This document shows, one piece after another, positions 1,631 to 8,617 of a stretch of 64,000 nucleotides of DNA. The position numbers and the translations under genes were made by a program. The notes beneath the pieces are model-generated. The model saw only the letters and a program-made list of their open reading frames with translations, made no database searches and had not been told where the DNA came from. Within the stretch, counting starts at the first letter, position 1. Each line of letters starts with the position of its first letter. Origin of the DNA: Robbsia sp. KACC 23696 (lineage in GTDB: Bacteria > Pseudomonadota > Gammaproteobacteria > Burkholderiales > Burkholderiaceae); assembly GCF_039852015.1 (NCBI RefSeq), contig NZ_CP156626.1:1024249-1088248 (forward strand), read 5' to 3'.

Positions 1631-2310
1631 TGCATCACGAATTCGATTGGTCTTCGATTCCGGCGTCGTTCAATACGCTATGGCATGGCGCCATCGTGAC
1701 GTTCGAGATCACCGTGTGTGCCATTGTCATCGGCATCCTTTGGGGGACGGTTCTCGCGCTGCTGCGACTGTCGCCGGTGAAGCCCTTGGCGTGGTTCGCG
1801 ACGATCTACGTCACCTTGTTCCGCTCCATCCCGCTGCTGATGGTGCTGTTGTGGTTCTTCCTGTTGGTGCCGCAACTGTTGCAGTCGTTCTTCGGTCTGT
1901 CGCCGTCGGTCGATATCCGCTTCGTCTCGGCCTTGACCGCGTTCTCCTTGTTCGAGGCCGCGTATTATTCCGAGATTATCCGGGCCGGCGTGCAGAGCGT
2001 GGCGCGAGGACAGGTGCAGGCTTCTTCGGCGCTCGGGCTGACGTACACGCAATCGATGCGCTATGTGGTGTTGCCGCAAGCCTTCCGTGCGATGGTGCCG
2101 TTGTTGCTGACGCAGGGGATCGTGTTGTTCCAGGATACGTCGTTGGTGTACGTGATCGGCCTGGCCGATTTCTTCCGTACCTCCACCAATATTGGCGACC
2201 GCGACGGTACGATGGTCGAAATGGTATTGTTTGCTGGCGCATGCTACTTCGTGGTTTCGGTAATCGCGTCGACGCTCGTCAAACGGATGCAAAAAGGGGT
2301 GAGCAGATGA
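1627..2310 (+). CDS. gltK: Glutamate/aspartate ABC transporter permease
   Basis: 227-aa ORF with a 4-nt overlap on gltJ. His/Glu/Gln/Arg/opine family permease signature (…[28 protein letters not shown]…). Confidence 0.85.
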
Positions 2311-4036: not shown

Positions 4037-4945
4037 TCAGGGGGTCAGTACCGGGTGAAACGGCGTCGTGCTCGGGAAGGTCAACGCGGCGCGCGGGAGC
4101 GCTGCGGCTTCGGACGGATAGCGCTCGCGTGGGCGTGCCGCTACGGCCAAAACCGCTTCGGGGACGGCCAGCCGGCGCGACGCGATGCGCTCACCGTTGC
4201 GGAATAGAAAGAGGTCACCCGGGGCGAACGCTGTCCACACTTCGTTGTCCGTCAGCGGCAGTGTGCCGATGACGGTGACGCGATCTTCCGGCGTGGTGTA
4301 TTGCGCGAAATCGATCGACATGTCCTCGTCCACCAGATGGGCGGTCGAGAAAGGCCATTGCCGAGTGAGGTATTGCAGATGCGTCGAACAATGCGCAAAC
4401 ATCGCCTGGCCGTTCGACATCAGGAAATTGAAGGTGCCGTGCTGACTGATGCGCGCGGTGATCTCGGCCACCGCATCGAATAGTTCGTCGAGCGGCGGCT
4501 GCTCGCTCGGGAAACGCTGGCGCAGGCCTTCGAGCATTTCACAGAAAGCCAGCTCGCTATCAGTGCTGCCCACCGGCTGAAAGAAGCCCGTCAAATCGGG
4601 TGAGTACTGCTTCAGATCGCCGTTGTGCGCGAAAATCCAATGCCGTCCCCACAGCTCGCGCATGAAGGGGTGGCAGTTTTCGAGCAAGGGCGCGCCCTGC
4701 GTGGCCTTGCGAATATGCGCGATGGTGTTCTTTGATTTGATCGGATATCGCTTGACCAATTCGGCGACCGGCGACTGGCACGACGACTGGTTATCGATGA
4801 ACAGCCGGCAGGCTTTTTCCTCGAAGAAAGCGATGCCCCAGCCATCTGCATGGTGGTCCGTGATGCCGCCACGCGCAGCAAAGCCGGTAAAGGAGAAGCG
4901 GACATCGGTGGGTGTCGCGCAATTCAGACCCAAAAGCTCACACAT
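4037..4945 (-). CDS. yafJ: Class-II (Ntn) glutamine amidotransferase, YafJ-type
   Basis: Begins MCELLG… (Cys2 nucleophile). GATase_2 family hallmarks (…WGIAFFE…IAHIRKAT…HPF…WIFAHNG…). Confidence 0.8.
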   Translation of the reverse strand: MCELLGLNCATPTDVRFSFTGFAARGGITDHHADGWGIAFFEEKACRLFIDNQSSCQSPVAELVKRYPIKSKNTIAHIRKATQGAPLLENCHPFMRELWGRHWIFAHNGDLKQYSPDLTGFFQPVGSTDSELAFCEMLEGLRQRFPSEQPPLDELFDAVAEITARISQHGTFNFLMSNGQAMFAHCSTHLQYLTRQWPFSTAHLVDEDMSIDFAQYTTPEDRVTVIGTLPLTDNEVWTAFAPGDLFLFRNGERIASRRLAVPEAVLAVAARPRERYPSEAAALPRAALTFPSTTPFHPVLTP

Positions 4946-6418: not shown

Positions 6419-6852
<434 letters not shown>

Positions 6853-6861
6853 CTTTTTTCA

Positions 6862-6950: not shown

Positions 6951-7382
6951 TCAGGCTGCCGCGCTATCGACGATGTCGAACGAATGGCTCAGCTCGGCGG
7001 TCTTGCCGAGCATGACCGACGCCGAACAATACTTGTCATGCGACAGGTTGATCGCGCGCTCGACCTTCAACGGGTCGAGGTTGCGGCCGCTCACCGTGAA
7101 ATGAAAATGGATCTTCGTGAAGATCTTCGGATCTTCACTGGCGCGCTCGGCGGTCAGCTTGACGCTGCAATCGTGGATGTCCTGGCGGCTTTTCTTCAGG
7201 ATCATCACGACATCGTAGGCCGTGCAGCCGCCGGTTCCCACCAACAGCATTTCCATCGGCCGCGGCGACAGGTTACGGCCACCGCCTTCCGGTGCGCCGT
7301 CCATCGTCACCAAGTGTCCGCTACCGGTTTCGGCCGCGAACGCCATGCCCTCGGGCCCCATCCAACTGATCTTGCATTCCAT
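6951..7382 (-). CDS. osmC: OsmC/Ohr-family peroxiredoxin-like protein
   Basis: ATG at 7382 (MECKISWMGPEG…) with GGAG 7 nt upstream. OsmC-like domain with conserved Cys pair (…GTGGCTAYD… …HDKYCSASVML…). Confidence 0.85.
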   Translation of the reverse strand: MECKISWMGPEGMAFAAETGSGHLVTMDGAPEGGGRNLSPRPMEMLLVGTGGCTAYDVVMILKKSRQDIHDCSVKLTAERASEDPKIFTKIHFHFTVSGRNLDPLKVERAINLSHDKYCSASVMLGKTAELSHSFDIVDSAAA

Positions 7383-7613
7383 CTTGGCTTCACTCCTCTG
7401 AGACGCGCATTCTACCCCCGGAGAAATCATAGCTTGCTCACGGCATATGATTGCCCCCCTAAACGTCAGGGGAAAGTGCTTGTTCTATCTGGGTTTATGA
7501 CGATCGAGAGACCGAAATGCTGCAAATCAATGAATTTGCGGCAATCTCGTTCATTCGTTTCAGTGTCGCATTTTTCGCAATGCGAAAGACGTTTTCATAT
7601 GACGAACGGCTCC

Positions 7614-7642
7614 TTGCGATAGGTGAGAAGGGCGTCTATAGT
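7614..7642 (+). promoter_or_regulatory. Sigma70-like promoter TTGCGA-N17-TATAGT
   Basis: −35 at 7614-7619, −10 at 7637-7642, 17-nt spacer. Predicted TSS ~7649. Confidence 0.45.
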
Positions 7643-7648
7643 GAATCG

Positions 7649-7792
7649 AACAGGCACGCGTCCTGCGACAGTCCCGCTTGTATGGCCGTCATCACGCGTC
7701 GCGTTATCGCTTTTCCCTGTCTCCTCCATCCGCTGCAGACGAATGTCGCGTGGGTGGATTTGCCCGGAGGGCTCCCTTCCGGGCATTTTTTT
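7649..7792 (+). ncRNA. Candidate small RNA (~145 nt) with CU-rich (UUUUCCCUGUCUCCUCCAUCC) putative anti-SD seed
   Basis: Bounded by a near-consensus promoter upstream and a strong intrinsic terminator (7762-7792). Contains internal complementary segments CACGCGUCCUGCGACA / UGUCGCGUGGGUG. Reading frames across it are low-quality. Confidence 0.4.
7762..7792 (+). terminator. Rho-independent terminator GCCCGGAGGG-ctc-CCTTCCGGGC + A TTTTTTT
   Basis: 10-bp stem (one G·U), short loop, 7-U run. Confidence 0.6.
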
Positions 7793-8139
7793 GCGCGGTC
7801 AACTGAGACTGTTTCTACCGATCTCATATCTTTCGCGTCGCGTCCGCGCCCGACATGCCGCGGGACGTCCTGCCGACCACGGTCGCGCGAAACCCACGAC
7901 GCTGGGCTCTCGTTTGCCGCGGCGCTCTTCCTTTTGCCAAAAGTGCGCTATACTCGCAGGCTCTCCCGATAAAAGCTCGTCGGGAAGGACGGTTGCAAGA
8001 CCGGGCAAGTCATGCCGACCACGCCGATTGGACAATCGTTTTTCGATCGTGCGGCGTGGAACGAAGGCATCACCGCTGCAGGCGCAGGGAAACGGAGGAG
8101 GGCGGGGCCGATCGGCCGGGTCATCCAATAAGAGTTCCG

Positions 8140-8175
8140 CACGCCTTAAGCGGTGCCGTAAGGGCGCTTTTTTTT
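8140..8175 (+). promoter_or_regulatory. Terminator-like attenuator hairpin + U8 tract located 13 nt upstream of rplM start codon (leader regulatory element)
   Basis: Hairpin CGCCTT-aaGCGGtgCCGt-AAGGGCG followed by TTTTTTTT, then ATTTGGATCAGTC-ATG. There is no room for a promoter between it and rplM, so rplM transcripts must read through it. Confidence 0.45.
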
Positions 8176-8188
8176 ATTTGGATCAGTC

Positions 8189-8617
8189 ATGAAGACATTT
8201 TCTGCAAAGGCCGAAACGGCCACGCACGAATGGTACGTGATTGACGCGACGGATAAGGTTCTCGGCCGTGTCGCCAGCGAAGTGGCACGCCGCTTGCGCG
8301 GTAAGCACAAGCCTGAATTTACTCCTCACGTCGATACCGGCGATTTCATCATTATCGTCAACGCCAGCAAGTTGAAGGTTACCGGCAAGAAGACGACGGA
8401 CAAGAAGTACTTCCGTCACACCGGTTACCCGGGCGGCATCTACGAGACGACGTTCGGCAAGATGCAAGAACGTTTCCCGGGCCGCGCGCTGGAAAAGGCG
8501 GTGAAGGGTATGCTCCCGAAGGGTCCGCTCGGTTACGCGATGATCAAGAAGCTCAAGGTCTACGCCGAGGGTACGCATCCGCATTCGGCGCAACAGCCGA
8601 AGGCGCTCGAGATCTAA
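8189..8617 (+). CDS. rplM: 50S ribosomal protein L13
   Basis: 142 aa, [27 protein letters not shown]…, canonical uL13. Confidence 0.95.

Follow-up and report, generated by a model that had tools for sequence, protein, structure and literature searches.

The window, a stretch of 64,000 nucleotides of Robbsia DNA, includes an OsmC-family gene and the gene of ribosomal protein L13 (rplM), separated by a spacer in which the small RNA (sRNA) element studied here is found (Table 1), in the osmC–rplM intergenic location given in the original prediction. Pfam OsmC and Ribosomal_L13 domains were identified at matching positions on a near-identical contig. An exact-sequence look-up of the OsmC protein of the window gave no match, and the corresponding look-up with rplM returned one near-identical contig, too similar to be informative. 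Among named matches, the OsmC protein was closest to that of Robbsia andropogonis (91% identity), which places the window in a Robbsia-like member of the Burkholderiaceae. The relatives included 80 loci collected via rplM, representing Burkholderia, Paraburkholderia, Caballeronia, Trinickia, Pandoraea, Cupriavidus, Limnobacter, Herbaspirillum, Polynucleobacter, Dechloromonas and others, and four closer loci added via exact-protein look-ups. Robbsia-type sequences were four in number: the window, L081, L082 (the R. andropogonis type) and L083.

Table 1. Features in and around the osmC–rplM spacer, with their positions in the window.
Feature	Position	Strand	Description
RNase P RNA, bacterial class A	6422–6853		295.6 bits; adjoins osmC on the side away from the sRNA
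OsmC-family gene	6951–7385	minus	left flank of the spacer
osmC–rplM spacer	7386–8188		803 nt; houses the sRNA element
Tandem dyad-symmetric boxes	7573–7587 and 7593–7607	plus	TTTCGCAATGCGAAA and TTTCATATGACGAAC; directly 5' of the −35, 20 bp apart
sRNA promoter, sigma-70-type (consensus scan)	7614–7642	plus	−35 TTGCGA 7614–7619; 17-nt spacer; −10 TATAGT 7637–7642
5' leader (predicted)	7650–7717	plus	predicted start ~7650, an A, 7 nt past the −10; 68 nt
Seed, anti-Shine-Dalgarno motif	7718–7728	plus	UGUCUCCUCCA; exactly RF02278 consensus positions 1–11
Hairpin 1, Robbsia-specific extended form	7725–7758	plus	UCCAUCCGC-U-GC-A-GAC GAAU GUC-GC-GUGGGUGGA
Intrinsic terminator (hairpin 2)	7761–7785, U7 7786–7792	plus	3-nt loop
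rplM (ribosomal protein L13)	8189–8617	plus	right flank of the spacer; rplM–rpsI from 8189 onward

At the Rfam gathering thresholds the spacer was empty, the element of the window falling below the cut-off. The Rfam check suggested with the original prediction, run as a sensitive scan, nevertheless gave one clear match to RF02278 (Betaproteobacteria toxic small RNA) at positions 7718–7792, covering the full model (1–64) with 41.2 bits, below the curated gathering cut-off of 50 bits. The E-value of the match was 1e-6 in the search of the spacer (871 nt) and 7.4e-5 in the search of the whole 64-kb window against all 4227 families, where it was the only sub-threshold match. At the gathering cut-off, RF02278 was found in none of the four Robbsia-type sequences, but at the same position in 15 of the 15 non-Robbsia loci tested, with scores of 52.8–76 bits (72.3 in Pararobbsia). 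The score remains below the threshold because of an insertion in hairpin 1, the interior of which is 20 nt long in the window and 9 nt in the model. The spacer matches to mir-2162, ncS037, anti-hemB, SorX, AgvB and suhB were rejected, as they were either far below the threshold or overlapped the same terminator.

A canonical copy of the RNA (TGTCTCCTCCACCCTCCTCCTTTGGTGGATT, followed by the terminator) is present 200–1000 nt 5' of rplM in most of the fetched loci. In the window and in the syntenic loci examined the sRNA lies in the same order and orientation, between an OsmC-like gene and rplM and transcribed towards rplM. The order RNase P RNA, osmC, NcS27-type sRNA, rplM–rpsI is kept in 13 of the 19 relatives scanned, and the RNase P RNA adjoins in every locus that extends far enough. 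In Burkholderia cenocepacia J2315, the 92-nt ncS27 is located between BCAL3348a, encoding an exported protein, and BCAL3349, encoding an OsmC-like protein (Sass 2017, Supplementary Table S1), and BCAL3348 encodes ribosomal protein L13 (Sass 2017, supplement). Since the osmC/rplM position is the same in J2315 and in the window, the element is, judged by its genomic context, the positional ortholog of NcS27. Identification of the rplM-linked copy as ncS05, a guess made from the arrow pattern in Sass 2015, was rejected and corrected according to the supplement of Sass 2017: ncS05 has a glyoxalase gene and an MGMT gene as its neighbours, and the copy at osmC/rplM is ncS27. In one Burkholderia cepacia-complex locus (L007), a 102-aa ORF with a signal peptide (positions 1881–2189, minus strand) separates the sRNA from rplM on the opposite strand; it probably corresponds to BCAL3348a, and a counterpart is absent from the Robbsia spacer.

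The location of the element 5' of rplM on the same strand, together with the terminator at its end, is also the geometry of an attenuator, and the RNA could accordingly be read as a cis-acting leader of the rplM–rpsI operon instead of a trans-acting sRNA. This reading is very improbable, as the distance from the terminator to rplM is about 400 nt and the first ~130 nt of it are unconserved (25–47%), a separately conserved TATACT box (7949–7954) precedes the conserved rplM 5'UTR, and in B. cenocepacia a start mapped 113 nt upstream belongs to rplM itself. Furthermore, an oppositely oriented gene separates the sRNA from rplM in Burkholderia, and paralogs of the RNA are found at unrelated loci.

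The rplM gene of the window has an apparent promoter of its own, with TATACT (7949–7954) as the −10 box, and apparently also a 5'UTR of some 230 nt, 59–76% conserved within Robbsia. The 5'UTR opens with a hairpin (CUCCCGA...UCGGGAAG) and closes with a terminator-like hairpin (8152–8168) followed by U8, 20 nt before the ATG. The motif UUUUUUUUGGAUC ahead of the rplM start codon recurs in B. cenocepacia, within its mapped 113-nt rplM 5'UTR. No Rfam match was found for the rplM 5'UTR region (7926–8188), and its overall fold was not significant (z −1.3). The 5'UTR could be a candidate autoregulatory leader for L13/S9. At the Cupriavidus lacunae locus (L020), a group II intron domain (RF02012, 118 bits), unrelated to the sRNA, was detected 3' of rplM–rpsI at positions 4675–4825.

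The two hexamers upstream of the element, described in the original prediction as a near-consensus sigma70 promoter, are present with the stated 17-nt spacing, but they match the consensus in 9 of the 12 positions, and in a stretch of 1.9 kb 0.5 such sites are expected and one was seen. Because the consensus match alone is at chance level, the promoter call depends on conservation, which supports it. The −10 block CTATAGTGAATC and the terminator, the conservation of which had been put forward as a check, are invariant in the four Robbsia-type sequences, and the Pararobbsia version of the block is CTATACTG (TATACT). In 45 of 50 loci the motif CTTGCG(YY)GCACAA, followed after ~10 nt by TATAAT, occurs 5' of the homologous RNA core. 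The counterpart in the window is CTTGCGATAGGTGAGAAGGGCGTCTATAGT at 7613–7642, and sequence comparison makes the promoter of the window a homolog of the conserved CTTGCG...TATAAT promoter of the family.

The tandem dyad-symmetric boxes 5' of the −35 are the only two matches to TTTCRYAWTRYGAAA (at most two mismatches) within the 64-kb window; the consensus scan had mislabelled the first of these paired TTTCGNAATNCGAAA-type boxes as 'terminator-like'. Similar box pairs (aTTTCgcATTATGaaa and aTTTCGyAATGCAAAT) are present 5' of the −35 in Burkholderia, Paraburkholderia, Caballeronia, Trinickia, Pandoraea, Cupriavidus and Pararobbsia. An upstream DNA motif shared by ncS03, ncS05 and ncS27 has been described (Sass 2017). 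The boxes are probably a candidate operator, to which a transcription factor would bind. A long imperfect inverted repeat with the centre TGCAAATCAATGAATTTGCG was also observed in the divergent osmC/sRNA control region (7500–7561). It was the source of the spurious mir-2162 match (E-value 9e-4, far below the threshold), its CTGCAAA and the adjacent bases are kept as far as Pararobbsia, and it is possibly a candidate operator of osmC.

The CU-rich tract UUUUCCCUGUCUCCUCCAUCC, which the original prediction had regarded as unpaired, is present at about 7710–7730. In the fold of the 77-nt core, nine nucleotides are free at 7716–7724 (CCUGUCUCC), but in all folds UCCAUCC of the tract is taken up into hairpin 1 as its 5' arm, and the tract is thus unpaired only in part. 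Of the 45 distinct syntenic cores, 42 have the seed in identical form. Hairpin 1 has been extended to 34 nt by a 12-nt insertion, found among the 45 distinct syntenic cores only in the Robbsia sequences, which replaces the CUCCUCC loop of the other genera. Consequently the second CU-rich motif (CUCCUCC) is absent from the hairpin-1 loop, which is GAAU, with no CUCC in the interior. This motif is missing also from the Polynucleobacter and Undibacterium copies, and as one of these (L071) still passes the Rfam cut-off with 52.8 bits, the loop motif is typical but not obligatory. In isolation, hairpin 1 folds with −14.6 kcal/mol (z −2.8). L083 and L082 retain its stem, with one U–G pair changed to U–A among the Robbsia sequences, and the loop varies between GAAU, AAAU, GAUC and UUC.

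The linker GGAUUU joins hairpin 1 to the terminator, so that AUUU precedes the terminator as in the rest of the family, and the terminator is aligned to positions 31–64 of the RF02278 model. A strong terminator with a U7 tail was recognized already in the original prediction, which had given it a GC stem of 10 bp; the stem consists of 11 pairs, eight of them G–C. As predicted from the sequence, the AUUU linker and the U7 tail would be compatible with Hfq binding. The region 7645–7792 was more stable than all 200 shuffled sequences (z −3.3). In the fold of the 77-nt core, the free 9-nt seed precedes two hairpins (z −4.9), and processed NcS27 has the same topology with a z-score that is also −4.9. 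When the 45 cores were aligned with MAFFT and analyzed with RNAalifold, the terminators were poorly aligned, too poorly for a count of covariation.

The core (7718–7792) is 89% identical to L083 and 88% to L082. The downstream spacer (7793–7925) is 47 and 25% identical, and the leader (7650–7717) 50 and 36% identical, to the same two sequences, respectively. In the comparison between relatives called for in the original prediction, conservation above the flanks is thus found in the core (88–89% against 25–50%), but not in the leader itself (36–50%). This distribution bears on the possibility that NcS27 is decaying in Robbsia and that the element is a relic of it, which has lost one seed, gained an insertion and no longer functions as a regulator. 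Such decay would agree with the sub-threshold Rfam score in all four Robbsia-type sequences and with the loss of the CU motif of the loop. It would also agree with the rarity of the extended-hairpin form: of the ten stretches returned when metagenomes were scanned for the extended hairpin 1, just one further contig (L093), the same as the R. andropogonis type, was a true homolog, and the other nine, in which the terminator was absent, were rejected as chance matches. A relic is nevertheless highly unlikely. The core forms an island of conservation between the diverged flanks at OsmC identities down to 91%; the seed, the AUUU linker, the terminator and the −10 of the promoter are intact and invariant in the Robbsia-type sequences; hairpin 1 varies in its loop but keeps its stem; and the insertion stabilizes hairpin 1 instead of disrupting it.

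The pattern of conservation also argues against a small or hypothetical protein, encoded by a 42-aa ORF at 7678–7806 or a 189-aa ORF at 7623–8192. ORFs of 42, 63, 151 and 189 aa do exist over the region, and genes have been called at the equivalent place in two relatives, with products of 183 aa in L081 and 192 aa in L083. The two calls are, however, on opposite strands, no gene is called in R. andropogonis, and no Pfam match was found. In addition, many of the indels are not multiples of three, the conservation peaks on the RNA structure and not along an ORF, and long spurious ORFs are expected in GC-rich DNA of this kind. The probability of a protein-coding function is therefore close to nil, and the original prediction's statement that no credible ORF is present agrees with the non-triplet indels and the inconsistent gene calls. 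The called proteins themselves, L081 1022–1573 (plus) and L083 497–1075 (plus), extend across the sRNA and spacer on opposite strands relative to rplM; they resemble the spurious ORFs that GC-rich DNA produces, here overlying an unannotated sRNA.

The start of the transcript was placed at ~7650 by analogy with the NcS27 start mapped by dRNA-seq, which is the A lying 7 nt after TATAAT, where the sequence reads AUUGG. With this rule the primary transcript is predicted to be ~143 nt long (about 7650–7792), in line with the size of ~145 nt originally proposed, and the same rule applied to the Pararobbsia copy gives 92 nt, exactly the length of NcS27. The leader alone does not fold better than shuffled sequences (z +0.36). 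The predicted leader of the window cannot be aligned with the NcS27 leader. Leader length varies across the family: it is approximately 0 nt in Caballeronia sp. J97 (L002), Ca. Paraburkholderia calva and P. sediminicola, ~30 nt in Burkholderia, Paraburkholderia and Pararobbsia, 57–59 nt in Limnobacter, 68–116 nt in Robbsia and 96–118 nt in Cupriavidus. As the leaders range from 0 to ~118 nt, the long leader of Robbsia is not unusual.

NcS27 is reported to be processed at CGA/AUG, one nucleotide 5' of the core, with removal of the 30-nt leader. This processing motif is absent just 5' of the core of the window, and the processing of the leader in Robbsia is therefore uncertain and stands as a possibility. 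It is distinctly unlikely that the sole product is a transcript of ~75 nt started at an unrecognised promoter immediately 5' of the core, the hexamers at 7614–7642 being irrelevant or serving something else. In its favour, the −10 box is located 6 nt from the core in Caballeronia, Ca. P. calva and P. sediminicola, which gives leaderless RNAs of about 60 nt, three of the four B. cenocepacia paralogs are short (57–67 nt; Sass 2017), and the leader of the window is poorly conserved with no significant fold. The consensus scan, however, found no promoter-like hexamers at 7650–7717, and the stretch is not conserved among Robbsia. The distal promoter with its −10 block, on the other hand, is shared by all Robbsia-type sequences and has its homolog in the family promoter, and the same promoter is followed by long leaders in Cupriavidus and Limnobacter.

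NcS27 is expressed in B. cenocepacia, its start has been mapped experimentally and its 3' end confirmed by RACE (Sass 2017). Its level is raised in biofilm, in stationary phase and under starvation; growth is attenuated when it is overexpressed, and an antisense directed at its CU-rich 5' end has the opposite effect (Sass 2017). For the double-hairpin RNAs, 55–80% of the predicted interactions were located at ribosome-binding sites or gene start regions (Sass 2017), and according to a review NcS27 alters the expression of genes for phenylalanine and tyrosine catabolism and sugar transport. The toxic small RNA family first came to notice through its toxicity when cloned in E. coli, and discrete expression and growth inhibition have been published for B. 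cenocepacia and Herbaspirillum only.

In comparison to NcS27 (Sass 2015, 2017, 2019), the element of the window has the same position, with the RNase P RNA beyond osmC, the same promoter type, an identical seed and the same order of seed, hairpin 1, A/U linker and terminator. Both have a 5' leader, that of the window being predicted, but the lengths are 68 and 30 nt, and the leader of the window is without the small 5' hairpin, the extra CCUCC and the CGA/AUG site of NcS27. The predicted total length is ~143 nt against 92 nt, and the sequence of the terminator stem differs. Hairpin 1 is a 5–6-bp stem with the loop CUCCUCCUAA in NcS27 and a 34-nt structure with a 4-nt GAAU loop in the window, which means that the second anti-Shine-Dalgarno motif is missing. 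As this motif is absent from the loop, regulation may differ from that of NcS27.

The seed and both hairpins are also in register with the other RF02278 or double-hairpin RNAs, ncS03, ncS05 and ncS62 and the Herbaspirillum RNAs Hsnc59, 63, 86 and 107. The hallmark of the family is CU-rich single strands complementary to ribosome-binding sites, and the element of the window has the seed. The RF02278 paralogs are dispersed at other loci, mostly leaderless and 57–67 nt long, whereas a leader is predicted for the window. Structural similarity has also been noted for the sibling sRNAs NmsR/RcoF of Neisseria meningitidis (Sass 2017). They are likewise betaproteobacterial and have CU-rich unpaired stretches complementary to ribosome-binding sites of central metabolism, a likeness taken from the literature only, but unlike the element of the window they form a tandem pair and have two CU-rich stretches.

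Taken together, the element is very likely the Robbsia-lineage ortholog of the Burkholderiales sRNA NcS27, a member of the RF02278 family that would act in trans as an anti-Shine-Dalgarno sRNA. The ortholog call is based on sequence and structure homology, synteny, promoter homology and the conservation island. The element is not a new kind of RNA, as the family is known and has been studied experimentally; it is a real, divergent and probably functional member. The original proposal of a discrete ~145-nt sRNA with a CU-rich anti-Shine-Dalgarno seed is supported, in accord with all of the findings, among them the significant RF02278 match of its 3' half and the positional equivalence with NcS27. 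The original prediction did not include the membership in a known family, the restriction of the conserved module to the last ~75 nt or the variable nature of the first ~68 nt, the leader.

In the proposed mechanism, the sigma-70 promoter, under the probable control of the two dyad boxes (7573–7607), would drive a primary transcript of ~143 nt that ends at the strong intrinsic terminator at 7792. The working part would be the last ~75 nt, in which the single-stranded CU-rich seed CCUGUCUCCUCC is followed by the stable hairpin, the AUUU linker and the U-tailed terminator hairpin. The seed would mimic the 3' end of 16S rRNA, pair in trans with the Shine-Dalgarno regions of the targets and block the initiation of translation; the putative targets would be ribosome-binding sites of the GGAGGAGA type facing the seed UCUCCUCC. 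By analogy with NcS27, carbon and amino-acid metabolism would be tuned as growth slows. The 68-nt leader would be a fast-evolving appendage that processing may remove, as it does the 30-nt leader of NcS27. Transcription, processing, targets and any Hfq dependence in Robbsia we infer by analogy, as we do the trans-acting anti-Shine-Dalgarno action, which would be that of NcS27 but with a single seed. In a crude RNAduplex scan of the seed region against candidate starts within the window, the duplexes were long and weak and fell at doubtful internal starts, and none pointed to an interpretable target.

In the minimum-energy fold of the full-length transcript, CCUGU of the CU-rich tract pairs with the extreme 5' end. 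It is possible, though rather unlikely, that NcS27 has been remodelled in Robbsia into an RNA with a single seed that is lengthened upstream (UUUUCCCUGUCUCCUCC) and partly masked by the 5' end of the leader, so that the transcript would be an inactive precursor, become active after removal of the leader and have a narrower set of targets. The masking would be through the pairing of ACAGG of the leader with CCUGU, and the loop anti-Shine-Dalgarno motif would have been replaced by a rigid extended hairpin.

The main value of identifying the element as an NcS27 ortholog is in annotation. The curated Rfam threshold misses the RNA in all four Robbsia-type sequences examined, and standard pipelines therefore leave the spacer blank or, as in two relatives, call a spurious ORF over it. 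No new mechanism is revealed. Across much of the Burkholderiales the NcS27 locus, promoter included, has a fixed place between osmC and rplM, and a probable operator is shared within the Burkholderiaceae. The variable length of the leader, from 0 to about 118 nt, and the dispensability of the second seed help to define the essential parts of this sRNA family.
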